Of a stretch of DNA of 64,000 nucleotides, positions 4,598 to 50,731 are shown one piece after another. The position numbers were made by a program, and so were the translations under genes. Positions within the stretch are counted from its first letter, which is position 1; every line of letters starts with the position of its first letter. Below the pieces are notes generated by a model. It did not search any database. It saw only the letters and a list, made by a program, of their open reading frames with translations, and was not told the DNA's origin. This DNA is from Pseudomonadota bacterium (lineage in GTDB: Bacteria; Bdellovibrionota_C; UBA2361; OMII01), in contig JBDLRS010000011.1 of NCBI GenBank assembly GCA_039799965.1, forward strand, positions 1,234 to 65,233, written 5' to 3'.

Positions 4598-5782
4598 ATG
4601 ATGAACCCCCGAATAGCCTCCATGCGCACCTACACCGCGGCGCGAAAAATGCAGCTATTCGCGTCGCTTGGACGCCCGATCGTCGCTGACCTCACCATCG
4701 GAGAACCACAACATGAGCCTGATCCGAAGGTTATTGAGATATTAAATTCATACGCGTATGAGTCAGTGAGTCGATACCCGAAAACCAAGCAAGAGGCGTA
4801 TCTGACCGAGGCGATCATCGCAGCTAATCTTCACTCTAAGAAGCTTAAGGGAACCATCCACGATACGCAGGTTTTGGCGGGGCTCGGAAGTGGTGAGTTG
4901 TTGTACTCCTTTGCCACCGCGGGCCTTGATCCGGCGAAACCCTACGTCCTGATTCCGAATCCAGCGTATCAGGTGTATTCCTCAGCGACCCAGCTCGCTG
5001 GTGGTATTCCGTACTACTTCAATCTGACCAAGGAGAATAATTTCCAACCCGACCTGGCTCGCATTCCCCGCGCGATCCTTGAGCGAACGAGTTTGTGCTA
5101 TCTGAACAGCCCCAACAATCCGTGCGCCGTCTCATACACCGAGGAAACTCTGCGGGGGATCGTGCTTCTCGCCCGTGAGCACGGATTCGCGGTCGCGTCC
5201 GATGAGTGCTACAGCGAGATTTATTTCGATCAAAAGCCTGTTAGTATGCTTGAGGTATGCGCAAACCTCGATGGCGACAACCTATTCAAGAATGTCGTCG
5301 CCTTCGACACCCTCTCGAAGCGAAGCAGTCTTCCAGGACTTCGCTCCGGCTCGATAGTCGGTGACGCTGAACTTGTTTCGAACTATCTTAAGATACGATT
5401 GAGTGAGCGCAAGGTGCTCCCGAATAACGTGCAACGAGCGTCGGCCTACGCATGGACGAACTACGAGGACGTCGCAAGAAGTCGAGAGCTCTATCGACAA
5501 AAATTCGAGATCGTTCGTAGCGCGTTTGAGAGCATCAATCGCCCCATCACCTTGCCTGATGGCTCCTTCTATTGTTGGCTCGACATCTCGTCGCTCAATC
5601 AAAACGATGAGACCTTCGCGCTCGAACTCGCCAAGGAGACAGGGATCCTCACGTTCCCAGGAAGTTACTTCTCGGTCGTTAGCGACGGTGTTAATCCCGG
5701 AGCCGGATTTATTCGCATCGCGCTCATCGATACCGTTGAAGCGACCAAGACAACCATTAAAACGTTAATGCAGTATATTTAA
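4598..5782 (+). CDS. dapC: class I/II aminotransferase, N-succinyldiaminopimelate aminotransferase (DapC)-like
   Basis: 394 aa PLP aminotransferase fold (LSKRSSLPGLRSG is the Lys-containing region). It lies immediately upstream of dapD and dapE on the same strand. Confidence 0.6.
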   Translation: MMNPRIASMRTYTAARKMQLFASLGRPIVADLTIGEPQHEPDPKVIEILNSYAYESVSRYPKTKQEAYLTEAIIAANLHSKKLKGTIHDTQVLAGLGSGELLYSFATAGLDPAKPYVLIPNPAYQVYSSATQLAGGIPYYFNLTKENNFQPDLARIPRAILERTSLCYLNSPNNPCAVSYTEETLRGIVLLAREHGFAVASDECYSEIYFDQKPVSMLEVCANLDGDNLFKNVVAFDTLSKRSSLPGLRSGSIVGDAELVSNYLKIRLSERKVLPNNVQRASAYAWTNYEDVARSRELYRQKFEIVRSAFESINRPITLPDGSFYCWLDISSLNQNDETFALELAKETGILTFPGSYFSVVSDGVNPGAGFIRIALIDTVEATKTTIKTLMQYI

Positions 5783-5799
5783 AACTACAGGTAGTAACT

Positions 5800-6984
5800 A
5801 TGTCAGAAGAGTGGGCGCGCGCCCAATTCGCGGAAAATATTCAACGGATTACAACTCCAATCCCTAACGTCGGGCTGGTAAAGCTCTCCCTTGATGGAAA
5901 ATTGATTCGGGTTGTCGCTAACATTCCAGGACAGTCTGGCTCTCTCCGGGTTCTCTCGCACTTTCAAAAGAATGGTGAGCTCACGACGGAAGGGGTCGCG
6001 GGGTGTCTTGAAGTTTTTGCGCCACTCGTCGAGGAGGCTAAGGCGTCTCCCGGTGCTCACCCGAATATCGACCTTCTGTTGGGTCTCCGATCCGATCAGG
6101 CGTTGCGAGTCGAGATGGTACAAACCTCCTCCGATCTCTTCGCCAAGCTCGCTGATAGCTCCGCGAATCAAATTGAGAAGCAGGGCGCAGTGGATCTTCT
6201 CGATAAAGGTCTCGTTCGGTGTGCGGAAAAGCTCAGCAACTACACGGTCGGCGCTAACGGGGTAGAGCTTACGGGCGAAGGAACATGGGTAACGCAGAGC
6301 TACGCAGTCGCCTGCATGAATGCCGGATTCTCAGCGTTTCCGATGGTGAAGATGGGAGAGCACTTCTACGACAAGGTTCCTCTCAAGACAGAAGGATGGA
6401 GCGCCGAAGATTTTGAGAAAGCGGGCGTGCGATTAATTCCGGGATGCTTTGCTAGACGTGGCGCATACATCGGCGCCGGAACGACGATTATGCCCGGTGG
6501 GATCGTCAACATTGGCGCGTACGTTGAGGGCAGTGGTGTGATGATCGATGGTGGCGCGCGTGTCGCGACCGGCGCTCAGGTTGGTAAAGGGGTGAAGCTC
6601 GGCGCCGGCTCCGGAATCGAGGGGATCCTTGAACCAGCGGGACGCCTCCCGTCTATCATTGAAGACAACGTGCGTATCGGCGCAAATTGCGAGGTGTGCG
6701 GTATTGTGGAGGAGGGCGCCGTTGTCGCAAGCGGTGTCGTCATGGCATCCGGTAAAAAGATCTTCGATCTCCGCACCAACGCTGAGGTTGAGCCTCGGTA
6801 TATGGCGATCGGCGAAAAGTTCTACGAGATACCCGTTATCCCACGCAATAGAGTCGCCGTTTCGGGCGTGTACGCTAAGACCGAGCATCTCGGGATCGAC
6901 TGCATCGTGCTGTTAGACAAGGACGCATCGGATACCAGTTTGGCTCAGATGCCAAAGAACGCTTCGCTCTATGTGAAGCTGTAA
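5800..6984 (+). CDS. dapD: 2,3,4,5-tetrahydropyridine-2,6-dicarboxylate N-succinyltransferase (long form)
   Basis: 394 aa. The C-terminal left-handed beta-helix has hexapeptide repeats (GAYIGAGTTIMPGGIVNIGAYVEGSGVMIDGGARVATGAQVGKGVKLGAGSGIEG). It sits between dapC-like and dapE. Confidence 0.7.
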   Translation: MSEEWARAQFAENIQRITTPIPNVGLVKLSLDGKLIRVVANIPGQSGSLRVLSHFQKNGELTTEGVAGCLEVFAPLVEEAKASPGAHPNIDLLLGLRSDQALRVEMVQTSSDLFAKLADSSANQIEKQGAVDLLDKGLVRCAEKLSNYTVGANGVELTGEGTWVTQSYAVACMNAGFSAFPMVKMGEHFYDKVPLKTEGWSAEDFEKAGVRLIPGCFARRGAYIGAGTTIMPGGIVNIGAYVEGSGVMIDGGARVATGAQVGKGVKLGAGSGIEGILEPAGRLPSIIEDNVRIGANCEVCGIVEEGAVVASGVVMASGKKIFDLRTNAEVEPRYMAIGEKFYEIPVIPRNRVAVSGVYAKTEHLGIDCIVLLDKDASDTSLAQMPKNASLYVKL

Positions 6985-13265: not shown

Positions 13266-13393
13266 CTATTCGTGAAATCGAGTGGGTAGGGCTCGGTGTG
13301 ATCCCAACGTGCACGTGGAAAGGCGCTATGTATAGGCCAAAGCAAGGGGTTACGTTACACCTATGCTCGTTGGCATCCAGTCGATTCCACGAA
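13266..13393. repeat. R2 MITE-like repeat, copy A (about 128 bp, imperfect TIR CTTCGTGRAATCGASTGG)
   Basis: Aligns by eye to 15021..15168. The shared core is TCGTGAAATCGAGTGGGTAGGGCTCGGTGT-ATCCC-ACGTGCACGTG...GCCAAAGCAAGGGTTTACGTTAC...GCTCGTTGGCA. Confidence 0.6.
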
Positions 13394-13629
13394 GAGCCAC
13401 AAAAAAATCAACAGGTGCTGCGAGCCTTTTGTCGTAAAACGAGTGTAGCATTATTTTCCTTACGGACTATGGAGTAGCTCGGGTACAGCGGTCTGACCAA
13501 AAGTAGCCCCGCTACGGAGTAAAGGGAAATACGGAGCAAAGGGAAAAGGATGTTGCGCCACAATAGCGATCGCAGCATGGTAAGGGTGCCGTACCGGATC
13601 AGAGGACGAACAGCGTAAGGGGCATATGC

Positions 13630-15020: not shown

Positions 15021-15168
15021 CTTCGTGAAATCGAGTGGGTAGGGCTCGGTGTTATCCCGACGTGCACGTGCACGTTCACGTTCACGTGGAAAGGGAGCTA
15101 TGCCTGAGCCAAAGCAAGGGTTTACGTTACCTCTGTGCTCGTTGGCACCCACTCCATTCCTCGATAAG
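15021..15168. repeat. R2 MITE-like repeat, copy B, with expanded CACGTG/CACGTT hexamer tract
   Basis: Direct-orientation match to 13266..13393. Carries an internal (CACGTK)n expansion at 15071..15097. Confidence 0.6.
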
Positions 15169-15292
15169 CCAATAAGTAACTCATTGGAGCCTGGTCGCAG
15201 GTTTAAGTAAAAAGATAGGCCGTTGAATCTTTTGAAGTCACCATAACTCGTATGGCGACCCTGCAAGAAGCAGTTCATCGATACGAGAGCAA

Positions 15293-23956: not shown

Positions 23957-24237
23957 AGGAATTTCCTTCTGAGCGCGTTTCGCCGGGAGTGTATACCGGA
24001 AAACGGGATTCCTCAATCTTTACCTACAAATAGAGGCGTATTTCGATAGGGAACCTGGCCCCTGACCGGCTGTTTAACGGGCTGGAATTGGAGCGAGAAG
24101 GAGTTCGGAGGCTTCGGCAATGGTCCCCCGCATGGTCGCTCTGGTCTTTGGAGGGTAGAAGGACTCATATCGCACAAACCGGACCGGTTACACGGTGCCC
24201 CACGCCCTGTTTCACGGCGTAGTACGATGTTCTCCTA

Positions 24238-24258
24238 GCAGGGTGGTGAAAAATATTC
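24238..24258. repeat. solo terminal-repeat fragment of the 181-bp MITE (TAGCAGGGTGGTGAAAAAT) in the purL/prkA divergent region
   Basis: Exact match to the left TIR of the MITE copies, but the sequence beyond diverges (ATTCAAAAAAGG...). Confidence 0.35.
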
Positions 24259-24624: not shown

Positions 24625-26559
24625 ATGTCGAAGGAAAATAAATTCCAAAAATTGATTCAAGAGGATCGTGAGACCCGTAAAAAATCTTCTTGGAAAGGTA
24701 CGATGCTTGAGTACCTTGAGAAAGTTCGCGAGAACCCTGGGGCGGTCAAACTTGCGCACAAGCGGCTCTACGACATGATCGCTGATAAGGGAACCGTCGA
24801 GGTGGACCTCGAACAGGATCCCCGCCTGAAGCGTATCTTCAAGGGCGAGAAGCTCAAAGTCTTTAACTTCTTCGCCGACGAGTTCTTCGGTATGGAGAAA
24901 ACGCTCAATCAGATCGTGCGATATTTCCACTCAGCGTCGCTGCGAGGAGAGGAGAGTCGGCAGGTTCTCTACCTCGTAGGTCCCGTAGGTTCCGGAAAGA
25001 GCTCTCTTGTGGAGCGCCTCAAGAAGGGACTTGAGGAGCTTCAGTTTTTCTACTCCATTGAGGGATGTCCGATGAATGAGGAGCCGCTGCACCTCGTTCC
25101 TCGACACCTTCGCAAGGAGTTCTCCAAGATGCTCGGCGTGGAGATCGAGGGAGATCTCTGTCCGGTTTGTCGATACCGCCTCAAAGAGGAGTTCAAGGGT
25201 AAGTGGGAGGACGTTCCCGTCAAGACCCAGGAGTTCTCCATTCGCGCCAAGCGTGGCGTGGGCGTTGTTCCCCCGGTAGATCCGAACAACCAAGATACCA
25301 GCGTTCTGATCGGTGGGGAGGATATCTCAAAACTCGACCTCTACTCAGAGGGCGATCCGCGAGTGCTTGACCTTACTGGCGCGCTGAATGTGGGTAACCG
25401 CGGAATGGTTGAGTTCATCGAGGTGTTCAAGAACGAGACCGAGTATCTTCACGCGATGATCACCGCGACTCAGGAGAAGTCGATTCCAGCTCCCGGGCGT
25501 CACGGAATGATTTACGTCGATACCTGCATCGTGGCGCATTCCAACGAAGCGGAGTGGAAGAAGTTCAAGAGCGACCACACCAACGAGGCGATCCTTGACC
25601 GTATCGTGACGGTAAAGGTCCCCTACAATTTGCGACTCTCTGAGGAGGTGAAGATCTACAAGAAGATCATTCGTCAATCGCAGTTCACGGCCGATATCGC
25701 TCCGCACACGATCGAGATCGCCTCGATGTTCGCGATCCTCTCCCGACTTGAGCCAACCAATAAGTGCGACCTGGTAACCAAACTCAAGCTCTATAACGGA
25801 GAAGAGGTTGTGGAGAAGGGCAAGACGAAGCGCATCGATGTGGTAGAGCTTCGTGAAGAGGCGAAGAGCGAGGGAATGAACGGTATTTCTACTCGTTTCA
25901 TCATGAAGGCGCTCGATAATGCGCTCTCTGATAACGTCGAGATGAACGCTATCAATCCTATCTCGGTACGAGAGGCGCTCGTGCAGATGGTTAAGGAGGC
26001 GGACTTCGCGGATGACGTGAAGAAGCGCTACCTTGAGTTCCTCCAGGATACCCTCCACAAGGAGTTTCTTGAGGTGCTTGAGAAAGAGATCACCAAGGCG
26101 TTCGTCTACTCCTACCAGGAGCAGGCGGAGTCACTCTTCCAAAACTACCTTGATCACGCTGAGTCATACGTGACGAAGAAGAAGTTCAAGGATCGTAGCA
26201 CCGGTGAGGTGCTCGAGCCGGACGAGGGATTCATGAAGTCTATTGAGGAACAGATCGCTATCATCGGCACCGCGTGTGATGGATTCCGTCAGGAGGTCAT
26301 CGCGTACCTCTGGTCAGCGGGACGCCGCGGCGAGAAGGTCACATACGAGAGCTACGAGCCGCTTAAAGAGGCGATCGAGAAGAAGCTGATGGCGAGCGTT
26401 CGCGATGTATCGCGAATTATTACCAAGGCGCGCACTCGAGATGACGACCAGCACAAAAAGTACAACAAGATGGTTGAGCAGCTTATTCGGAACGGATATC
26501 CGGCGAGTTGCGTGGATGTAATCCTGAAGTACGCCGCCAACAATCTTTGGAAGGACTAA
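24625..26559 (+). CDS. prkA: PrkA family serine protein kinase (AAA+ ATPase N-domain)
   Basis: 644 aa. Walker A motif LVGPVGSGKSSLVERLK. It is colinear with the yeaH-like and spoVR genes. Confidence 0.9.
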   Translation: MSKENKFQKLIQEDRETRKKSSWKGTMLEYLEKVRENPGAVKLAHKRLYDMIADKGTVEVDLEQDPRLKRIFKGEKLKVFNFFADEFFGMEKTLNQIVRYFHSASLRGEESRQVLYLVGPVGSGKSSLVERLKKGLEELQFFYSIEGCPMNEEPLHLVPRHLRKEFSKMLGVEIEGDLCPVCRYRLKEEFKGKWEDVPVKTQEFSIRAKRGVGVVPPVDPNNQDTSVLIGGEDISKLDLYSEGDPRVLDLTGALNVGNRGMVEFIEVFKNETEYLHAMITATQEKSIPAPGRHGMIYVDTCIVAHSNEAEWKKFKSDHTNEAILDRIVTVKVPYNLRLSEEVKIYKKIIRQSQFTADIAPHTIEIASMFAILSRLEPTNKCDLVTKLKLYNGEEVVEKGKTKRIDVVELREEAKSEGMNGISTRFIMKALDNALSDNVEMNAINPISVREALVQMVKEADFADDVKKRYLEFLQDTLHKEFLEVLEKEITKAFVYSYQEQAESLFQNYLDHAESYVTKKKFKDRSTGEVLEPDEGFMKSIEEQIAIIGTACDGFRQEVIAYLWSAGRRGEKVTYESYEPLKEAIEKKLMASVRDVSRIITKARTRDDDQHKKYNKMVEQLIRNGYPASCVDVILKYAANNLWKD

Positions 26560-26584
26560 ACGTTCCCCGCTTCGGTGAGGTGTA

Positions 26585-27820
26585 ATGTCGACCATATTTC
26601 GTCCCTACACTCCTAGCTCGCAGCGCTCTGACCGGAGCGCGCGAGATAGGATGCGACATCGCCAAAAGATCAAAGACTCTATTCGCGATAACATCGGTGA
26701 TATCCTTGCAGAGGAATCTATCATCGGTCGGGATCGGGATAAGATCATCAAGGTGCCAATCCGCTCCGTCAAGGAGTATCGCTTCATCTACGGCGAAAAC
26801 TCGCCGGGCGTGGCTCAGGGCGACGGCCAGCAGAAGCCAGGAGATGTAGTTCAACAGGGCGATCAAGAGGGTAAGGGACAGGGCGGTAAGGGTGGAGACC
26901 AACCTGGTGTCGATGCTTTTGAGACCGACATCACCCTAGAGGAGCTCATCGCGATTATGTTTGATGACCTCGAGCTTCCGGAGCTTGAGAAGAAGGCCCT
27001 GAAGGAGGTCGTGTCAGAGGATGCCCGCAAACGCAAAGGTCATCGCCGAGCCGGTATTCGGCCCCGACTCGATAAGCGAGCAACCGCGCGTAATCGAGCC
27101 CGAAGGTGGATGTCGGTACGTCGAAGTCGAGAGGTTGGTCCAGATGGCGAGAAGCCGCGCTTCCCATTCCACGAGGATGATATGCGGTACTACCACATCG
27201 TCCCTACAACGAAAGAGGCTTCGAACGCCGTGATCTTCTGTATCATGGATACCTCAGGATCTATGGGTACGGTGAAGAAGTACCTCGCGCGGAGCTTTTA
27301 CTTCCTATTGTATCAATTCGTTCGCCAAAAATACGCTAACGTTGAGGTGGTCTTTATCGCTCACCATACCGAAGCGAAGGAGGTGAGTGAGGAGGATTTC
27401 TTCCACAAGGTGGAATCGGGAGGTACCTACATCTCCTCAGGCTATAAGAAGGCGCTCGAGATTATCGAGGACCGGTATCATCCATCGCTATGGAACGTGT
27501 ACGCGTTTCATTGTTCCGATGGTGATAACTTCTACTCAGATAATGAGCGCGCCCTGCAGGCGGCTGAGGATCTGTGTAAGGTGTGCAATCTCTTTGGCTA
27601 TGGTGAGATTAAGCCATCGGGGAGCGCCTACTACAGCGGTACTATGTTAGAGGTGTTCGGCGCAATTAAAGCCGACAACTTCCACATGATTACGATCGAG
27701 AAGAAAGAGGATCTCTGGGAAGGCTTCAGAAGCTTCCTACTGAAGGATAAGGGGAGCGGCGTTTCGGCTCACGGAAAAGTGTTTGGTGGGAGCGAGGGGG
27801 CGGCTTCGGCCGCACCGTAG
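26585..27820 (+). CDS. YeaH/YhbH family protein (DUF444, vWA-like)
   Basis: 411 aa. Carries the DUF444 hallmark FCIMDTSGSMG. It follows prkA by 25 nt. Confidence 0.85.
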   Translation: MSTIFRPYTPSSQRSDRSARDRMRHRQKIKDSIRDNIGDILAEESIIGRDRDKIIKVPIRSVKEYRFIYGENSPGVAQGDGQQKPGDVVQQGDQEGKGQGGKGGDQPGVDAFETDITLEELIAIMFDDLELPELEKKALKEVVSEDARKRKGHRRAGIRPRLDKRATARNRARRWMSVRRSREVGPDGEKPRFPFHEDDMRYYHIVPTTKEASNAVIFCIMDTSGSMGTVKKYLARSFYFLLYQFVRQKYANVEVVFIAHHTEAKEVSEEDFFHKVESGGTYISSGYKKALEIIEDRYHPSLWNVYAFHCSDGDNFYSDNERALQAAEDLCKVCNLFGYGEIKPSGSAYYSGTMLEVFGAIKADNFHMITIEKKEDLWEGFRSFLLKDKGSGVSAHGKVFGGSEGAASAAP

Positions 27821-27826
27821 AAAGCT

Positions 27827-29284
27827 ATGTCACATAACATCGACGAACTTGCTGATTGGGATAAACGGATACTGGAGCTCGTTCACACGTACGGGCTCAA
27901 CTGCTATCCCCAAGAGTTTGAGATCTGCGATCACAACGAGATGTTGGGATATATGGCGTACACCGGCATGCCATCGCACTATCCACACTGGTCATACGGT
28001 AAATCGTTCGAACGTCAAAAGACCATGTATGACTACGGTGTGTCGGGTCTTCCGTACGAGATGGTGATCAATTCAAATCCCTGTCTTGCGTACTTAATGC
28101 GTGATAATTCACTCCTGTTACAGGTGCTCACTATAGCCCACGTATACGGCCATAACGACTTTTTCGCAAACAACTTCACCTTTACCTCGGGAACCAAAGC
28201 GGAGCACGTTCTTCAGTCCTTTAAGAGCCACGGACAGAGAATTAGCTCGTACCAAGAGGATCCCTCGATCGGTGTCGAGGCTGTCGAGAACATGATCGAT
28301 CACGCGCACGCGATCTGTTACCAACGGTCTCGAAATCTCGCTATTACACAACTCTCTCAGGATGAGCAGGTTCTTCGGGCGTGGGAGCGATCGCAGCCAG
28401 CGGCGGACCCGTGGCGAGAAATTCATCCGGCGAAGGAGTATAAGCCACCTAATCTTACACGGGTTCCAGCGGAGCCGCAGGAGAATATCCTGCAGTTTAT
28501 CGCCAAGTATAATCCGTACCTCCCTGAGTGGAAGAGGGACATCCTGTTGATCGTTGACGCGCAGACGCAGTACTTCATGCCGCAGATGGACACCAAGATC
28601 ATGAACGAGGGATGGGCGAGCTACTGGCATCATAAGATCCTTAACGAGCTTAAGCTCCCGCAAGGGATGCACCTTGAGTTCCTCGTACGGCACAACCAGG
28701 TGTTGCGCCCCCACCCAGGTGGGCTCAATCCATATCACCTCGGATTCGTTCTGTGGCACGATATCGAGCGTCGCTGGAATCAGGGAGACATTGGTAGAGA
28801 GTGGTCGGACGATGAGCCGCCAACCGCTGAAGGGATCAAAGACGAGAACGAAACCCCGGGTCGTAAAAAGATCTTTGAGGTACGCGAAGCGGACCGTGAC
28901 CAGTCCTTCCTTCGCCGATTTCTTACACGCGAGATAATGGAGGAGCTGCACCTCTTCCAGCACGAGCGCCGGGGAAAAGATCGCGTTATCACCAAGGTCG
29001 CCAGCGAAGAGGGGTGGCGCGAGGTCAAAGAGAACCTTATCAGGAACGTTGGTACCGGCTCTATTCCGGTTATAAAGATCGAGGATGCGGATTTTGGGAA
29101 GAGCCGCATACTCTATATGAAGCACTACCATGACGGTCGAGATCTTCAGCTTGAGTACGCGGAGCACACGCTTAAGCACGTGGCGGCTCTGTGGGAGCGT
29201 GAGGTAGTGCTCGAGACCTCGATTAACGGCAAGGAGTCGCTTCTTAAGTTGGTTGGCGATTCCCTCAAAATTGAGCGACTCTAG
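27827..29284 (+). CDS. spoVR: SpoVR family protein
   Basis: 485 aa third member of the prkA-yeaH-spoVR triad. Its TAG stop lies inside the CTAG end of the MITE. Confidence 0.85.
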   Translation: MSHNIDELADWDKRILELVHTYGLNCYPQEFEICDHNEMLGYMAYTGMPSHYPHWSYGKSFERQKTMYDYGVSGLPYEMVINSNPCLAYLMRDNSLLLQVLTIAHVYGHNDFFANNFTFTSGTKAEHVLQSFKSHGQRISSYQEDPSIGVEAVENMIDHAHAICYQRSRNLAITQLSQDEQVLRAWERSQPAADPWREIHPAKEYKPPNLTRVPAEPQENILQFIAKYNPYLPEWKRDILLIVDAQTQYFMPQMDTKIMNEGWASYWHHKILNELKLPQGMHLEFLVRHNQVLRPHPGGLNPYHLGFVLWHDIERRWNQGDIGREWSDDEPPTAEGIKDENETPGRKKIFEVREADRDQSFLRRFLTREIMEELHLFQHERRGKDRVITKVASEEGWREVKENLIRNVGTGSIPVIKIEDADFGKSRILYMKHYHDGRDLQLEYAEHTLKHVAALWEREVVLETSINGKESLLKLVGDSLKIERL

Positions 29285-29469
29285 CAGGGTGGTGAAAAAT
29301 GGTTCCGTCGTGAGCATTTTGAAAGTTTTGACGAAACAAGGCGGAGATGACGAAAAAACCGGAGGCGTATCCACCGAGATACGTTGAGGATTTTTTCGGC
29401 AGCTCCAACGAAGTTGCAGTCACACTATCGAAATGCGCAACAGGAAATCATTTTTCACCACCCTGCTAG
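29281..29469. mobile_element. 181-bp MITE-like element, copy 1 (core 29285..29465) with CTAG on both flanks
   Basis: Perfect TIR CAGGGTGGTGAAAAATG / CATTTTTCACCACCCTG. Nested internal stems (ACGTATC-CACTGA-GATACGT; CGAAAAAA/TTTTTTCG). Sits between convergent spoVR and pntB. Confidence 0.8.
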
Positions 29470-37405: not shown

Positions 37406-37480
37406 TCGGGGTGAGAGGATTTGAACCTCCGACCCCTAGTTCCCAAAACTAGTGCTCTAGCCGGGCTGAGCTACACCCCG
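37406..37480 (-). tRNA. tRNA-Pro (anticodon TGG)
   Basis: Minus-strand read: CGGGGTG-TA-GCTCAGCCCGGCTAGAGC-A-CTAGT-TTTGGGA-ACTAG-GGGTC-GGAGG-TTCAAAT-CCTCT-CACCCCG-A. It has a 7-bp acceptor stem, anticodon loop UUUGGGA with G37, and GTTCAAAT T-loop. CCA is not encoded. Confidence 0.85.
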
Positions 37481-37603
37481 ATACGTCCGTAACGTGCTGG
37501 GGAGACTAGCCTCTCTGGCGGATAGAATCAAGCGGGAAGGGAGCCTTTTCGTCGTTGGGGCGGACAAACTCGGCGGTGGACTGAGATTCGGTGTGAGCGC
37601 GGG

Positions 37604-37636
37604 TACGTTCACGTTTACGTGCACGAGCACGTTCAT
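37604..37636. repeat. ACGTKC-type hexamer repeat block (GGGTACGTTCACGTTTACGTGCACGAGCACGTTCA)
   Basis: Near-identical (2 mismatches) to 59538..59574. Related tracts occur at 15071..15097 and, inverted, at 59447..59486. Confidence 0.5.
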
Positions 37637-37727
37637 GGGGGCAGAGGTGCGTGATTCGTTGGAGGATTTTGGGGTGGGTGGCATAGCCTGGGTAAAGTCT
37701 GATATACCAAAACATCTTGGAGGAGTT

Positions 37728-39125
37728 ATGCCCAACTACGTTTCGATTCACGATATTTCCAACGATAAGGTGCCTGTGGGTACGCTCCAGCTCGCTGGCT
37801 GGATCCGAACTCATCGGCAGTCGAAGCGAGTGTCCTTCATCGAGTTGTCGGACGGAACCTCGGTCACGAATCTCCAACTTGTGGTCGACCCGCAGTTGCC
37901 GGCCTATGCGGAGAACGCTTCAAAGCTCTCAACGGGCGCTTCCATTAAGGTTTCAGGAGAGTTGGTCGTGTCTCCGGCAAAGGGGCAGAAGTATGAGTTC
38001 CAGGTTAAGGAGCTTGAGCTCCTGGGAGAGGCTGACCCTGAGATCTACCCACTTCAAAAGAAAGGGCACTCCCTTGAGTTTCTCCGTGAGCAACTTCACC
38101 TTCGACCTCGAACCGCTACGATGGGCGCGGTGCTGCGCATTCGTTCCGCGGCGGCGTTCGCCGTTCATAAGTTCTTTACTGAACGTGGATTCTTCTACAT
38201 CCACACCCCTATTATCAGCACCTCTGATTGTGAGGGAGCTGGCGAGATGTTTCACGTCTCGACGTTCGATCCGGAGAACCCTCCGCGTTTGAACGGCAAG
38301 GTGGACTTTTCTCAGGACTTCTTCAAGGAACCGGCGAGTCTCACCGTTTCAGGGCAACTTGAGGGAGAGATCTGCGCGATGGGTCTCTCAAAGATCTACA
38401 CCTTCGGTCCAACATTCAGGGCCGAGAATTCGAACACGACACGACATCTCGCCGAATTCTGGATGATCGAGCCAGAGATGGCTTTCTACGAGTTGCAAGA
38501 CAATATGCTTCTTGCGCAGGAGTTCGTTCAGGATGTTTTGAAGCAGGTGCTCGCCTCCTCCCGTTCTGAGCTTGAGTTCCTCGCCTCACAGGAGTGGGCG
38601 CAGGAGGGACACCTCGATAACCTTCGTCGCGTTGCGGAGACCCCGTTTACGACGATGGATTACACCGACGCCATTCGCATCCTTGAACAGAGTGGCAAGG
38701 CTTTCGAGTATCACGTGAAGTGGGGGATCGATCTTCAATCTGAGCATGAGCGATTCCTGACGGATGAGTACGTGAAAGGTCCAGTTACCGTTGTGAACTA
38801 CCCGAAGGACATTAAAGCGTTCTATATGCGCCTCAATGAGGACGGTAAGACGGTACGAGCGATGGATGTGCTCGTTCCTCGGTTGGGGGAGATCGTAGGT
38901 GGGTCGCAACGTGAGGAACGCCACGATGTTCTCCTTGAGAAGATCCGCGCCATGGGGCTCGATGAGCGTTCCTACTGGTGGTATCTTGAGCTTCGCAAGT
39001 TCGGTACCGTGCCTCATTCCGGTTTCGGGCTCGGCTTTGAGCGGTTGCTTATGTACCTCACGGGGATGACAAATATCCGAGATGTTATCGGATTCCCTCG
39101 ATTCCCAGGGTTCGCCAAGTTCTAG
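37728..39125 (+). CDS. asnS: asparagine--tRNA ligase
   Basis: Class IIb aaRS with OB-fold N-domain. Motif 3 region GFGLGFERLLMYLTGMTNIRDVIGFPRFPG. ATG (MPNYVSIHDI) is preferred over the track GTG at 37494. Its TAG stop lies in the MITE CTAG. Confidence 0.8.
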   Translation: MPNYVSIHDISNDKVPVGTLQLAGWIRTHRQSKRVSFIELSDGTSVTNLQLVVDPQLPAYAENASKLSTGASIKVSGELVVSPAKGQKYEFQVKELELLGEADPEIYPLQKKGHSLEFLREQLHLRPRTATMGAVLRIRSAAAFAVHKFFTERGFFYIHTPIISTSDCEGAGEMFHVSTFDPENPPRLNGKVDFSQDFFKEPASLTVSGQLEGEICAMGLSKIYTFGPTFRAENSNTTRHLAEFWMIEPEMAFYELQDNMLLAQEFVQDVLKQVLASSRSELEFLASQEWAQEGHLDNLRRVAETPFTTMDYTDAIRILEQSGKAFEYHVKWGIDLQSEHERFLTDEYVKGPVTVVNYPKDIKAFYMRLNEDGKTVRAMDVLVPRLGEIVGGSQREERHDVLLEKIRAMGLDERSYWWYLELRKFGTVPHSGFGLGFERLLMYLTGMTNIRDVIGFPRFPGFAKF

Positions 39126-39310
39126 CAGGGTGGTGAAAAATGGTTCCGTCGTGAGCATTTTGCGAGTTTTGACGAAACGAGGCGGAGACGACGAAAAAAC
39201 CGGAGGCGTATCCAATGAGATACGTTGAGGATCTTTTCGGCGGCTCCAACGAAGTTGCAGTCAAACTATCGAAATGCGCAACAGGAAATCATTTTTCACC
39301 ACCCTGCTAG
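39122..39310. mobile_element. 181-bp MITE-like element, copy 2 (core 39126..39306), CTAG flanks
   Basis: Same perfect TIRs as copy 1, with a few internal substitutions (for example TTGCGAG vs TTGAAAG). Sits between asnS and the ornithine aminotransferase gene. Confidence 0.8.
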
Positions 39311-39410: not shown

Positions 39411-40628
39411 ATGGCTCTCGACGAAAAAACAAAGGGACTGATTGAGAAGACGGAAGCTCACGCGGCGCACAACTACGCGCCCCTTCCGATCGTTATTGAG
39501 TCCGCGAAAGGGGTCTGGGTCACCGATGTAGATGGGCACCGCTACCTTGATTTCCTCAGCGCCTATAGCGCGCTTAACTTCGGCCACTGCAACGAACGGA
39601 TTGCAAGGGTAGCGCACTCGCAGCTTGATAAGCTTACGTTGACCTCTCGAGCTTTTTATTCAGAGCAGTTCGCGCTTCTCGCTGAGGAGCTCGCGAAGTT
39701 CTGTCGTAAAGACAAGGTGCTCGTGATGAACTCAGGGGCTGAGGCGGTTGAGACCTCTATCAAGGCCGCTCGTCGGTGGGCGTATGACGTTAAAAAGATC
39801 CCTGAAGATAAGGCCGAGATAATAACCTGTGACGGAAACTTCCACGGCCGCACAACGACGATTGTGAGCTTCAGCACCTCAGAGGATAGTCGGCGAGCCT
39901 TTGGTCCCTACACCCCAGGATTCAAGAGCGTACCGTTCGGAGATGCCGATGCCGTTGAAGCGGCGATTACTCCTCACACCGCCGCGGTTATGGTCGAGCC
40001 TATTCAAGGAGAGGGGGGAGTCATCATCCCTCCCGATGGATATTTGGGAAAGGTGCGTGAGATCTGCACCCGCCACAACGTGCTCCTCATCGCGGATGAG
40101 ATACAGACCGGTATGTGCCGTACCGGAAAGATCTTCGCGTGCGATCACGAGAACGTCGATCCAGATATCGTCATCCTCGCTAAGTCCCTTGGAGGCGGTA
40201 TCGCTCCAATCTCCTGTATCGCCGCCAATGACTCCGTGATGCACGTGTTTAGTGCCGGTTCGCATGGCTCGACGATGGGTGGTAATCCGTTCGCGTGCGC
40301 TATCGCGAGAGAGGTGATTGCGATTGTCAACGAAGAGAAGCCGCACGAGCACGCCGCGGAGCTTGGAGAGTACGCGGTAAAACGATTGCAAGAAATTCGT
40401 TCGCCGATCGTCAAAGAGGTTCGAGGTCGTGGGCTCCTGATCGGTATCGACATCGACCCCTCGGCCGGTACGGCTAAAGATTTTTGTAAGAAGCTCAAGT
40501 ATGAGGGGCTCTTGTGTAAAGATACTCGTATGCAGACCCTTCGTGTCGCGCCACCACTCATTATCACCAAAGAGGAGCTTGATCTCGGATTGCAGAGATT
40601 TGAGAGGGTGTTGGGAGGAGGCGCATAG
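39411..40628 (+). CDS. rocD: ornithine--oxo-acid aminotransferase (class III PLP aminotransferase)
   Basis: 405 aa. Motifs include LLIADEIQTGMCRTGKIFA and LAKSLGGGIAPIS (Lys region). Confidence 0.75.
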   Translation: MALDEKTKGLIEKTEAHAAHNYAPLPIVIESAKGVWVTDVDGHRYLDFLSAYSALNFGHCNERIARVAHSQLDKLTLTSRAFYSEQFALLAEELAKFCRKDKVLVMNSGAEAVETSIKAARRWAYDVKKIPEDKAEIITCDGNFHGRTTTIVSFSTSEDSRRAFGPYTPGFKSVPFGDADAVEAAITPHTAAVMVEPIQGEGGVIIPPDGYLGKVREICTRHNVLLIADEIQTGMCRTGKIFACDHENVDPDIVILAKSLGGGIAPISCIAANDSVMHVFSAGSHGSTMGGNPFACAIAREVIAIVNEEKPHEHAAELGEYAVKRLQEIRSPIVKEVRGRGLLIGIDIDPSAGTAKDFCKKLKYEGLLCKDTRMQTLRVAPPLIITKEELDLGLQRFERVLGGGA

Positions 40629-41922: not shown

Positions 41923-44202
41923 CTACGATCGGCTCATCGCGCGAGGTGACATGATCTCTGAGAGCGCGAGCTGCTCCTGCGCCACAGACAGAGGCAGCGC
42001 GTATTTTGAACGGGAGTGCTCGACGCATGCCTTCGCCGAATTCTCAGTGGTGGCAGCGTTCTGAACGTCGAGGGTATATCCCGAGAATGCCTCTAGCACC
42101 TCTCCGTCGATACTCATCTTCACATAAAACTCCCGAAGGGCAAGGTTGAGGAGATCTTCGGATCCGAATCGTGGTTTAAATTCCTGGGCTACGGTGGCGG
42201 CGTCATCAGCCCCTACTCGGAAGCACACCAGGTTCGCCACATTTCCAAAGATGGTCTCCTTGACGGTTTGCGGTAGTTGACCGAGGAACTGATTGGCGAA
42301 GGTGAGGCAGAGGCGGTACTTGCGCGACTCGCTGAGAATCTCTCCGAATGACGGAGTAGCGAAATTCTGGAACTCATCGACGTACACGTAAAAGTCCTGA
42401 CGAGACTCTACCGGAATATCAGCTCGTGACATCGCTGCTTCGTAGAGCTTCCAGATGATGAGGGACCCAAGCAGCGAGGCGTTCTCGGCACCAAGTACAC
42501 CCTTCGATATCTTGAAGATTACGATCTTGCGGGAGTCGATGAAGTCACGGAAGTCAAAGGTGTTTGTCGGCTGTCCGAGAATGTTTCGAATCATGTCCGT
42601 AGCGAGCAACTCATCTAAGCGATTGAGAAGTTGCGACACAGGCCCCTCCTCAAACTCTTGGCGCCGAGATGGAAACTCAACCTCCCAGAATCTTCGCACC
42701 GATTCATCGGTGCTTCGGGATACGACCTCTCTGCGGAACTCGTCGTCTGAGAGAAGTCGACGGAGCGAGACGATACTAGCGCCCGGGATGTTCAGGAGCG
42801 CGTTGATGGCGTAGCGCAGGATATGGTCCATCTTTTCCGACCACCCATCGCCGAAAACCCGCTTAAAGGTATCGAGGAAGCTGAGCATGACTCGAACTTT
42901 GAGGTCCGGTCTGATAGGAATCATCGGGTTGAAGCTCGGCGGGTGCTCCAGATCGCTCGGATCGAAGATGACGACATCCTTGAGTCGGTGTTTAGGGATC
43001 GTCTTTAATATCTCGTCAGAGAGGTCCCCGTGAGGATCGAGCACCGCGCAGCCGAAGCCGTTATCGATATCAGCCTTGATGAGAAGTTGAAGGAAACACG
43101 ACTTCCCGTTTCCGGATTTTCCGAGAGCGTAGAGATGGCGGCGTCGATCGAATCGGCGAAAGCCAAACGGGGTCGTCTGATCGCGATAGTTAGTGACGCC
43201 AAAAAAACTTATCTGAGGATCGTTTGGAGTGGATGGCAGGGTTCGCGGTGGCGGCGCTTTGCGGGAGAGCACGAGAGCTGTATTGGGAAGCGTCCCGGCG
43301 GACGGAGGGTGCCACAGGGTTGAGAGTTCAATCGCCGATACCATGAAGGGGCTATTGAATCTTCGTTGCTGCATGAGCTTAATCACGGAGGGCCCATACC
43401 GAAGCGGTCGGGTTCGAAGCCGATTCTCATCCGCCGTATTGAGATACTTCACCGCGTGGGTGGCCGCTCGTACATGGAGGGCGAGGCGGGATTGGAGTGA
43501 AGCTGCGTCTTTCTTTGATGCGTTCTTAGGAAGGTCGGCGAACGCCGTAACGCGATAGTTGATCTTGAAGAGGCGAGAGAGGCACTTCTCTTTGACAAGT
43601 TTTATGCTCTGGTTGGCGATATCCTTCTTAAGCCACGTTCGCGTCCTGAAGAGGCGGCAGAACTGCTCGATCTTTCGGAGCGCGCCTAACTTCGCATGAA
43701 GTAACGGGGTGTCGCGAAGTGGTCGAACAACAACCTGGACCAGGACGTTCTCGAACTCGGAGATTCGCGACAGGGTAGTAACGACAGGAGCCATACTATC
43801 CCACGCGAACGCCCGGAAGTTCTGAAGCGGATAAATGTCCGGCCACTCCAGGTCGAGATCCGCGCCAACCGCGACGGTTTGGTCATTTATCTCTGTGGTG
43901 TAGTCGTCAATGTACTCAATTTCAACGTCAGCCCACCAACCGTATATCGCTTTGGTAATAAGTTGCAGCGTTTCCTCTTCAGCGGCGATACAGATGTAGA
44001 CGATCGTTCCCTTTGCGTACAACTCAAGGGAGAAAGGTTCGGTCGTTTGCTCAGCGATATCGTTGAGCTGAGTAAAAAAGAAGTTGGACGTAACCAATGC
44101 CCACTTGGTCATCCTCATAGCATCGCCAATCGTCATCATGGCTCTCGGGACGTGGATCAGGGCTACGCGCATGGTGGGAGGTATCTCAAGGGATATAAAC
44201 AA
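41923..44202 (-). CDS. soluble P-loop NTPase of the TrwB/TraD/VirD4 coupling-protein-like (AAA_10/DUF87) family
   Basis: 759 aa with no TM segment. Walker A LYALGKSGNGKSCFL is followed by VLDPHGDL. Walker B DFYVYVDEFQNF. Distal LTFANQFLGQL. The unknown N-terminal ~330-aa domain is not conserved with any family I can name. Confidence 0.5.
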   Translation of the reverse strand: MFISLEIPPTMRVALIHVPRAMMTIGDAMRMTKWALVTSNFFFTQLNDIAEQTTEPFSLELYAKGTIVYICIAAEEETLQLITKAIYGWWADVEIEYIDDYTTEINDQTVAVGADLDLEWPDIYPLQNFRAFAWDSMAPVVTTLSRISEFENVLVQVVVRPLRDTPLLHAKLGALRKIEQFCRLFRTRTWLKKDIANQSIKLVKEKCLSRLFKINYRVTAFADLPKNASKKDAASLQSRLALHVRAATHAVKYLNTADENRLRTRPLRYGPSVIKLMQQRRFNSPFMVSAIELSTLWHPPSAGTLPNTALVLSRKAPPPRTLPSTPNDPQISFFGVTNYRDQTTPFGFRRFDRRRHLYALGKSGNGKSCFLQLLIKADIDNGFGCAVLDPHGDLSDEILKTIPKHRLKDVVIFDPSDLEHPPSFNPMIPIRPDLKVRVMLSFLDTFKRVFGDGWSEKMDHILRYAINALLNIPGASIVSLRRLLSDDEFRREVVSRSTDESVRRFWEVEFPSRRQEFEEGPVSQLLNRLDELLATDMIRNILGQPTNTFDFRDFIDSRKIVIFKISKGVLGAENASLLGSLIIWKLYEAAMSRADIPVESRQDFYVYVDEFQNFATPSFGEILSESRKYRLCLTFANQFLGQLPQTVKETIFGNVANLVCFRVGADDAATVAQEFKPRFGSEDLLNLALREFYVKMSIDGEVLEAFSGYTLDVQNAATTENSAKACVEHSRSKYALPLSVAQEQLALSEIMSPRAMSRS

Positions 44203-44262: not shown

Positions 44263-44451
44263 TGAGCAGGGTGGTGAAAAATGGTTCCGTCGTGAGCATT
44301 TTGAGAGTTTTGACGAAACGAGGCGGAGACGACGAAAAAACCGGAGGCGTATCCACTGAGATACGTTGAGGATTTTTTCGGCGGCTCCAACAAAGTTGCA
44401 GTCAAACTATCGAAATGCGCAACAGGAAATCATTTTTCACCACCCTGTTAG
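44263..44451. mobile_element. 181-bp MITE-like element, copy 3 (core 44267..44447), flanks TGAG/TTAG
   Basis: Same TIRs (right end CACCACCCTG). Lies in the divergent upstream region of the T4CP-like ATPase and the coiled-coil gene. Confidence 0.75.
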
Positions 44452-49519: not shown

Positions 49520-49893
49520 AACCACACCGCTCCTTATCAGCCCTAATCCCCGCACAATATCCACCCAACGCCGAAGCGTCCAGTTACGAGGACGATACCC
49601 CACATTACCGAGCTTCGACACCTCAAAACACGCGCGGAAAGTCAAGCAATCAAACTCAAAAATCATCGAATCGTTTGCGCAGGGGAAACAATCATAAGGC
49701 GCAGAGATTGCGTGTGAATCGAGTGGTATATGCGCATCCTCATACCCACCCGACGGTGCGTAGAGGCGATATACTTCACCCGAGGTTCCCTCTTGATCTC
49801 ACAAGGGAAACTGCTTTACCCTTCCCCACAAATACGAAACAGAACACGGGCTTGCTCTCGCAAAACGCAGCTCTTTACTTGGAAAGATGTACT

Positions 49894-50364
49894 ATGACCA
49901 CCAAAGCTACAGAAAAAATCATCGAAGCTCTCACGCAACTCGTAGAGGGATTCGCGGAGCTTCAAGAGAAGCTTGAGGAGGACTACGATCCCGATATGGA
50001 GACCGAGTCTGACGATGACGATACTGATAGCGACGATGAAGAGGGCGCGACAGGTATAGAGGAGGCCATCGTTACCGAGATCAAGGCGGCCGTTGAGTCG
50101 GTCATCGAAAACGAGGACTGCGCCCCTGAGGATCTCGCATCCATAGTGTCAGCCCTTACTGGCGCCCTCGAGGAGATCGCTCCAGAGGTATTCAGCCACG
50201 GCGAGGCTGAGGAGGAAGAGGAAGAAGAGGAGGAGGAGTACGAAGAGGTCGACGACGAAGACTTCGAGGAGGACTACGACGAGGACGAAGACGAGGACGA
50301 AGACGAAGACGAGGACGAGGACGAGGACGAAGACGAGGATGAGGACGAAGACGATGATGACTAG
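49894..50364 (+). CDS. highly acidic protein with C-terminal poly-Asp/Glu tail
   Basis: ATG at 49894 (MTTKATEKIIEAL...). The last ~60 residues are almost pure D/E (EEEEEEEEEEYEEVDDEDFEEDYDEDEDEDEDED...DDDD), encoded by a GAGGACGAAGAC-type microsatellite. Confidence 0.5.
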   Translation: MTTKATEKIIEALTQLVEGFAELQEKLEEDYDPDMETESDDDDTDSDDEEGATGIEEAIVTEIKAAVESVIENEDCAPEDLASIVSALTGALEEIAPEVFSHGEAEEEEEEEEEEYEEVDDEDFEEDYDEDEDEDEDEDEDEDEDEDEDEDEDDDD

Positions 50365-50542
50365 GTCTTAAAGGTCCCCTCTGATTCAGTTGCTAATCTT
50401 TCACTTGAGTACCAGACAAAGGCCCAAGTGGAAGATTAGGAACAGCCCGCGGGGGCGGGCTAAAAACAAGAATACTAACTTGTCAGTGTCCGGCATGCCG
50501 GTGAAGAATTATTTACCTAACGGGCTATTTACCTAACGGGCT

Positions 50543-50731
50543 ATAGCAGGGCGGTGAAAAATGGTTCCGTCGTGAGCATTTTGAGAGTTTTGACGAAACG
50601 AGGCGGAGACGACGAAAAAACCGGAGGCGTATCCACTGAGATACGTTGAGGTTTTTTTCGGGGGCTCCAACGAAGTTGCAGTCAAACTATCGAAATGCGC
50701 AACAGGAAATCATTCTTCACCACCGTGATAG
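50543..50731. mobile_element. 181-bp MITE-like element, copy 4 (core 50547..50727; degenerate TIRs), ATAG flanks
   Basis: Left end CAGGGCGGTG and right end CACCACCGTG each carry one substitution. Sits between the convergent acidic-protein gene and the M16 peptidase gene. Directly preceded by two tandem TTTACCTAACGGGCTA units. Confidence 0.7.

Follow-up and report, generated by a model that had tools for sequence, protein, structure and literature searches.

The window, which is the whole 64-kb stretch of DNA (64,000 nucleotides) that was analysed, contains two places where a short palindromic element adjoins the stop codons of protein-coding genes (Table 1). At the first, the convergent genes spoVR and pntB both end at the element. 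At the second, the element follows asnS. A preliminary description had placed the stop codons of these three genes within the CTAG tetranucleotides that flank the element, and their positions were confirmed from the sequence and its open reading frames (ORFs). The spoVR gene belongs to a conserved trio consisting of prkA, DUF444 (yeaH-like), and spoVR, found at 24625-29284 of the window. Synteny is kept up to the spoVR stop and is lost immediately after it in every relative examined. The asnS ORF was assigned by Pfam to the class II tRNA synthetases of the Asp/Lys/Asn type, and it was identified as AsnS because its homologues are annotated as asparaginyl-tRNA synthetase. An ORF of 543 aa that starts with GTG (37494-39125) over-extends the 5' end of asnS by 78 codons. 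A tRNA gene is located just upstream of asnS (37406-37480, minus strand).

Table 1. Features of the window at and around the copies of the palindromic element (positions count from the first base of the window).
Feature	Position	Strand	Remarks
Solo terminal repeat (CTAG + CAGGGTGGTGAAAAATA)	24235-24255	+	No partner; likely remnant
spoVR, 485 aa	27827-29284	+	Last of the prkA / DUF444 / spoVR cluster; Pfam SpoVR and SpoVR_C; TAG at 29282-29284
Left TSD of copy 1 (CTAG)	29281-29284	+	29282-29284 is the spoVR TAG stop
MITE copy 1, core	29285-29465		181 bp, CAGGGTGGTGAAAAATG...CATTTTTCACCACCCTG; near-perfect long palindrome
Central A6-hairpin-T6 module of copy 1	29353-29396		Shaped like a bidirectional intrinsic terminator
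Right TSD of copy 1 (CTAG)	29466-29469	-	29466-29468 (plus-strand CTA) is the pntB TAG stop
pntB, 461 aa	29466-30851	-	Pfam PNTB; plus-strand CTA at 29466-29468
asnS, 465 aa	37728-39125	+	Starts MPNYVSI; Pfam tRNA-synt_2 and anticodon OB fold; TAG at 39123-39125
Left TSD of copy 2 (CTAG)	39122-39125	+	39123-39125 is the asnS TAG stop
MITE copy 2, core	39126-39306		181 bp
Right TSD of copy 2 (CTAG)	39307-39310		Intergenic; ~100 nt upstream of a class III aminotransferase gene (39411-40628)
MITE copy 3	44263-44451		Flanks TGAG/TTAG, a decayed TSD; between divergent genes; no stop touched
MITE copy 4	50543-50731		ATAG/ATAG TSD; intergenic, between convergent genes; 36 nt from the stop of an M16 peptidase gene

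Anatomy and distribution of the element

The element has a non-coding, palindromic core of 181 bp. Four full copies are present in the window, and these have 93-95% identity to the reference copy. In copy 1, the sequence at 29281-29301 is CTAGCAGGGTGGTGAAAAATG, and that at 29449-29469 is its reverse complement without a mismatch. Copy 2 has this pair as well, at 39122-39142 and 39290-39310. The outer 21 bases of both copies, which are made up of CTAG and the first 17 bases of the repeat, are perfectly complementary. This terminal 21-mer has nine matches in the window with three or fewer mismatches, compared with none in 100 shuffles. The first 24 columns of the element are 98% conserved (n = 34 copies). 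When copy 1 was folded as RNA with both of its CTAGs (29281-29469), one long hairpin of -92.5 kcal/mol was predicted (z = -11.9). Copies 3 and 4 and the solo repeat are additional to the two copies that had been reported before.

Judged by its anatomy, the element is a MITE, as had been proposed. Terminal inverted repeats, a TSD, small size, a lack of coding sequence, multiple copies, and presence or absence at a given locus were all found. When positions 20000-55000 were searched against Rfam at the gathering score, a tRNA was the sole match and no family was found for the MITE. The family appears to be undescribed, and it comes from an uncultured freshwater lineage.

Species-representative genomes were scanned with the terminal repeat, and at least 75 loci in related MAGs were found to carry it. 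Among the loci listed, nearly all are from freshwater MAGs labelled delta proteobacterium, Proteobacteria, or Bdellovibrionota. Many of the matches are located at contig ends. Among the matches listed there are 39 full copies, 31 of them with a length of exactly 181 bp. Very many MAG contigs among L009-L083 start or stop within the repeat (for example, L012, L021, L035, L048, L066, and L078), and much of the fragmentation of these assemblies is due to the MITE. Several of the broken contig ends, again among L009-L083, directly abut the stops of long ORFs. Length variants are present as well. L067:5521-5570 and L029:3454-3578 are internal-deletion derivatives (~50 nt and 123 nt, respectively), and L028:2829-3083 is a longer version (~250 nt). 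These variants show that copies are still decaying and rearranging.

A second, shorter palindromic element of ~80 nt, with ends CACCTTTCAGTGCGTG..., was identified in two of the related genomes (L060:6470-6565 and L072:2570-2643). It possesses the same central hairpin as the MITE, with an A-tract, GTATCC...GAGATAC, and a T-tract, and has different termini. In L060, it begins directly after the CTAG that closes a frame ending in ...GYRFKG, possibly a response-regulator gene. In L072, it is found ~70 nt past the asnS stop, at the contig end. It could represent a sister family of MITEs, or the core module could have come from it.

Target site and the adjoining stop codons

The four bases outside CAGGG were recorded at 122 unique element ends among the matches listed. 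CTAG was found at 66 of these (54%), TTAG at 17, CTAA at 8, GTAG at 5, and ATAG at 4, and a YTAR flank is present at 92 of the 122 ends (75%). An identical 4-mer stands on both sides in 24 of the 39 full copies. Eight of the 24 matched pairs are not CTAG. These are TTAG/TTAG in five cases, and ATAG/ATAG (copy 4 of the window), CAAG/CAAG, and CTAA/CTAA. Since the first and fourth flanking bases are also repeated, CTAG is a 4-bp TSD of host DNA and not an end of the MITE. As read from these flanks, the target is the palindromic YTAR, mostly CTAG, and all four bases are duplicated on insertion. The suggestion that the ends of the MITE supply the stop codons was thus not upheld, because the CTAG is a host target that has been duplicated.

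A different account of the flanks would be that the element is a MITE of the IS630/Tc1-mariner type, or a Correia-like one, that inserts at the TA within CTAG, duplicates TA only, and has G...C as its own terminal bases. Where CTAG stands on both sides, models of a 2-bp and a 4-bp duplication predict the same sequence. IS630 prefers CTAG and duplicates TA. IS711, similarly, duplicates only TA in YTAR (PMC2266754). The MITE resembles both in its preference for CTAG or YTAR, but it differs from them in that four bases rather than two are duplicated in its paired flanks. In the non-CTAG copies, the first and fourth bases are repeated too. If TA alone were duplicated, each of these flanks would have to be matched by a parallel mutation in the terminal base of the element. 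This makes the account very unlikely, and duplication of TA only, by the IS630 or the Correia model, was rejected on the basis of the paired TTAG/TTAG (five cases), ATAG/ATAG, and CTAA/CTAA flanks.

Two families with 4-bp duplications were also considered. IS5 makes 4-bp (C/T)TA(A/G) duplications (PMC5009759). The MITE shares the 4-bp YTAR TSD, with CTAG, TTAG, and CTAA all being used. Unlike IS5, it is a non-coding palindrome along its entire 181 bp, and no transposase was found for it. The likeness of the MITE, whose terminal repeat is CAGGGTGGTGAAAAATG, to IS5 is one of target and duplication behaviour, and its membership of the IS5 family is putative. Members of the IS701 family have a highly conserved, exact 4-bp duplication and the end consensus ---YACT-Y--YR (PMC2266710). 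The length of this duplication fits the MITE. The MITE end CAGGGTGGTGAA does not fit the consensus, and the family was rejected.

Among the loci listed, the solo repeats were searched for an autonomous element or a transposase bounded by the same terminal repeats, and none was found. In L046 and L070, the ORFs beside the solo repeats encode, rather than a transposase, a Der-like GTPase and a secretin. The remaining solo ends are internal-deletion derivatives or contig-end truncations. A BLAST search of plasmids for a parent element returned chance-level matches only.

The lengths and ends of the three proteins were compared with those of their homologues, and both were found to agree at 70-96% identity. 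SpoVR has 485 aa in 85 of 120 homologues, and the close ones end in ...LKIERL like that of the window. PntB has 461 aa in 112 of 120 homologues and ends in ...LVNCLK(S/A)(A/N/D). AsnS has 465 aa in 64 of 120 homologues, and its end RFPGFAKF, exactly as in the window, is present in 60 of the 120. Orthologous loci can be compared as well. The terminal repeat of the MITE is absent from the compared spoVR, pntB, and asnS loci. At asnS, AAG TTC TAG was found in L072 (MAG C4_MAG_00039) and L091 (GCA_032111275.1), both of which have a native CTAG. At pntB, there is GCT AAC TAG in L021, again a native CTAG, and AAC TAA in L086-L090, where CTAA is a YTAR site. At spoVR (L001-8 and L084-88), the gene ends in TTG TAG, CTG TAG, or CTA TAG, with the same residue followed by TAG. 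The tetranucleotide at the spoVR stop is thus GTAG or ATAG in the relatives, and CTC TAG is found in the window only. As CTAG at this stop is absent from all relatives examined, the spoVR half of the pre-insertion site is not directly seen.

The preliminary description left two possibilities: that the element lands on existing TAG stops, or that its insertion truncated or extended the C-termini. The first is borne out by the element-free orthologues, which stop at the same residue. It could be argued that insertion cut off or extended SpoVR, PntB, or AsnS and gave each a new stop, since the present stops fall in the four bases directly adjoining the element and MITE-like repeats that overlap the 3' ends of genes are known. 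In pneumococci, for example, 36 genes take their stop codon from a BOX repeat, and there is no good evidence that they were truncated by it (PMC3049150). For the three genes here, such an alteration is refuted by the lengths of the homologues, by their end motifs, and by the element-free loci, in which the stop is at the same codon position; it is extremely unlikely. By these comparisons, spoVR, pntB, and asnS are shown to retain their native C-termini, and docking at the stop is neutral. The preliminary description also held that targeting would be neutral if orthologues without the element ended at the same residue, followed by TAG within a native CTAG. This is the case for asnS and pntB. 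For spoVR it is the case in part, as the residue and the TAG are the same but the tetranucleotide is not CTAG.

The frequency of docking at stops was examined in the related genomes. For 70 ends, an inward-reading ORF of 120 codons or more lies no further than 300 nt away, and 20 of these ends are at a distance of exactly 0 from the stop. No other single distance was seen more than three times. Eleven of the 39 full copies adjoin one or more stops of ORFs that have 100 codons or more. These counts could mean that the transposition machinery senses stops or gene ends beyond CTAG, for example, through the termination of transcription or translation or through the structure of DNA at 3' ends. Relative to all CTAG sites pooled, full copies are found at stops 2.5-3.8 times as often (Fisher p = 0.02-0.003, with thresholds of at least 100 codons). 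However, a null based on crude gene calls (longest ORFs of at least 100 codons) places 320 of the 554 CTAG sites that are not associated with the MITE inside genes, from which selection would remove insertions, 197 between genes, and 37 at stops. Among the CTAG sites outside genes, at which insertions are tolerable, stops account for 16% (37 of 234, with greedy gene calls). The share of MITE ends at stops is equal (16%, or 20 of 126, with 106 elsewhere). About one third of the crude gene calls end in a YTAR-type stop, and no orientation bias of the MITE relative to the abutting gene was seen (14 vs 9). Because the two shares match, target preference and the purging of intragenic insertions are enough to account for the stops, a stop-sensing mechanism is unneeded, and its existence is improbable. 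The frequency at stops is roughly that predicted by the CTAG sites outside gene interiors, with some room left by the crude gene calls. The coincidence with stop codons is an ordinary consequence of target preference.

The use of stop codons was also counted in crude calls from the window (1-64000) and L009-L083, where G+C is ~55%. TAG closes 192 of 401 ORFs, TAA closes 128, and TGA closes 81. TAG as the commonest stop is unusual for bacteria, and it increases the number of stop codons available as targets. The tetranucleotide CTAG is rarer in the window than expected (57 observed vs 99 expected).

The interval between spoVR and pntB

The closest element-free relatives (L086-L089, with a PntB that is 96% identical) possess pntA, pntAB, pntB, and a gene for a protein of 334 aa, and, on the opposite strand, an arsC-like gene and spoVR. 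In a BLAST comparison, positions 933-3885 of L086 correspond to 32418-29467 of the window, and positions 5492-6386 correspond to 29285-28391. The 1,606 bp between the two stops of L086 are replaced in the window by the 181-bp MITE. The arsC-like gene and the gene for the 334-aa protein have no BLAST match anywhere in the window. In L001-4 and L084, too, spoVR is followed by an arsC-like gene, and in L021 such a gene faces pntB. Since the gene recurs in these relatives, its place between spoVR and pntB is taken to be ancestral. Each breakpoint coincides exactly with a stop codon, and in some relatives at least these codons form YTAR-type targets. The comparison suggests that copy 1 marks a MITE-associated deletion of ~1.6 kb, in which the arsC-like gene and the gene for the 334-aa protein were removed from between the convergent spoVR and pntB. 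Recombination between two stop-docked copies would be the most probable cause. A transposase-mediated adjacent deletion that ended at a second YTAR site could have had the same result.

It is also conceivable that the deletion came first, with an unrelated event fusing the spoVR and pntB stops into one CTAG that then received a single MITE insertion. When the core and one CTAG are removed, the sequence reads GACT-CTAG-TTGGC, which is a legitimate target in which both stops overlap. The CTAG on both flanks is what one insertion would give. However, this order of events requires that a 1.6-kb deletion ran precisely from one stop codon to the other, a precision that recombination between two stop-docked copies, or an adjacent deletion to a YTAR site, would give automatically. 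Copy 2 likewise takes the place of host sequence between two YTAR sites. A prior, unrelated deletion is considered unlikely, and a deletion associated with the MITE is preferred.

At copy 2, the comparison is with L091. About 150 nt, including a native hairpin, are replaced from the CTAG of asnS to a downstream TTAG, and homology resumes 7 nt past the duplication. This suggests a replacement pattern similar to that of copy 1, and it is taken as suggestive because intergenic DNA diverges quickly.

A look-up of exact proteins returned three independent metagenome contigs of the same species, each with an identical copy 1 at the identical site. From these contigs, the insertion of copy 1 appears to be fixed in the species. 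The same look-up with the AsnS of the window returned no record. No empty allele and no two-copy intermediate allele of the window's species was found in the three contigs or in two metagenome pattern scans. The pattern AACTGCCTCAAAGCCAACTAG is present in two JGI metagenome contigs (L092 and L093), yet the metagenome pattern scan was null. Since these contigs were missed, the collections overlap incompletely, and negative metagenome scans weigh little.

Proposed mechanism, possible termination, and comparison with other repeats

Taken together, the findings are best described by a 181-bp MITE with IS5-like YTAR targeting and a 4-bp TSD, harmless docking at stops, an inferred deletion at copy 1, and a possible terminator. 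This joint reading is given a probability of about 0.85. The MITE would presumably be mobilised in trans by a DDE transposase with IS5-like target choice. Insertion would occur at YTAR, most often CTAG, and the four bases would be duplicated. As CTAG holds TAG on both strands, a gene that ends in C-TAG offers a target at which insertion is harmless. The copy of the TSD on the side of the gene is the gene's own stop, so that the protein is unchanged. Insertions inside genes would be removed by selection, and the survivors would be those at intergenic YTAR sites or exactly on stops. The A6-hairpin-T6 centre may now serve the abutting genes as a two-way terminator.

The centre consists of A6, an 8-bp hairpin with a 2-bp extension, and T6. 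Both strands are predicted to fold (-19.8 and -17.5 kcal/mol, with z of about -2.5 to -3.7). A terminator scan returned one consensus match on the plus strand, compared with 1.6 sites expected by chance in the region. In the folded centre, an internal loop separates the U-tract from the strong stem. No extra conservation of the central hairpin was found when it was compared with the arms. For these two reasons, the offset U-tract and the lack of extra conservation, the case for a terminator is an argument from shape. On predicted folding, a two-way terminator for spoVR and pntB, which are otherwise without a spacer, is plausible.

These observations show why some mobile elements accumulate exactly at the ends of genes. 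With a palindromic target that has a stop on both strands and that is duplicated in full, insertion is invisible to the protein. This is relevant to the annotation and assembly of these uncultured freshwater bacteria, many of whose MAG contigs break in the repeat. It also suggests how MITEs might bring about clean deletions of the genes between two stops and deliver terminators. Stop-docked copies might act as portable deletion endpoints that spare ORFs, excise the genes between two neighbours, and leave a two-way terminator behind, and this could provide for the clean loss of gene cassettes in a streamlining freshwater lineage. Such a role is tentative and somewhat doubtful. Of all the observations, the replacement of two genes precisely from one stop to the other is the one of greatest interest.

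The preliminary description compared the element with Correia and ERIC repeats, and this comparison is a loose one. Correia elements, from Neisseria, duplicate TA, and ERIC is not known to have a defined duplication. The part that stands is that all are short, palindromic, high-copy elements with terminal inverted repeats that are found beside genes and are probably co-transcribed. The MITE differs in that it duplicates four bases, has no sequence similarity to them, and resides in freshwater Bdellovibrionota-like MAGs; its 4-bp YTAR duplication is like that of IS5 (PMC5009759). Small repeats on stop codons without truncation have already been documented (PMC3049150), and nothing here overturns current understanding. 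Along with BOX, the pneumococcal SPRITE repeat is enriched at 3' ends and is a proposed terminator (PMC3049150). Like the MITE, these are small interspersed repeats on the 3' ends of genes. They are unrelated to it in sequence and host, and the stop at the MITE is a host target kept by the 4-bp TSD rather than a part of the repeat.

Other repeats and possible mobile functions are present in the window. Copy 3 is adjoined by an ORF of 759 aa (41923-44202, minus strand) with matches to T4SS coupling-protein (TraG/VirD4-like) and HerA-like domains. The encoded protein may be a marker of an integrated conjugative element. About 180 nt upstream of copy 4, there is an ORF of 229 aa (49675-50364) with an extremely acidic C-terminal repeat that is rich in Glu/Asp; this ORF has no Pfam match. 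Its region contains 12 overlapping copies of a 48-nt repeat, 11 of which are in tandem at 50203-50370. In addition, a segment of ~130 nt that is unrelated to the MITE is duplicated at 13269-13399 and 15022-15171, ~1.75 kb apart, with 96% and 80% identity in its two parts.
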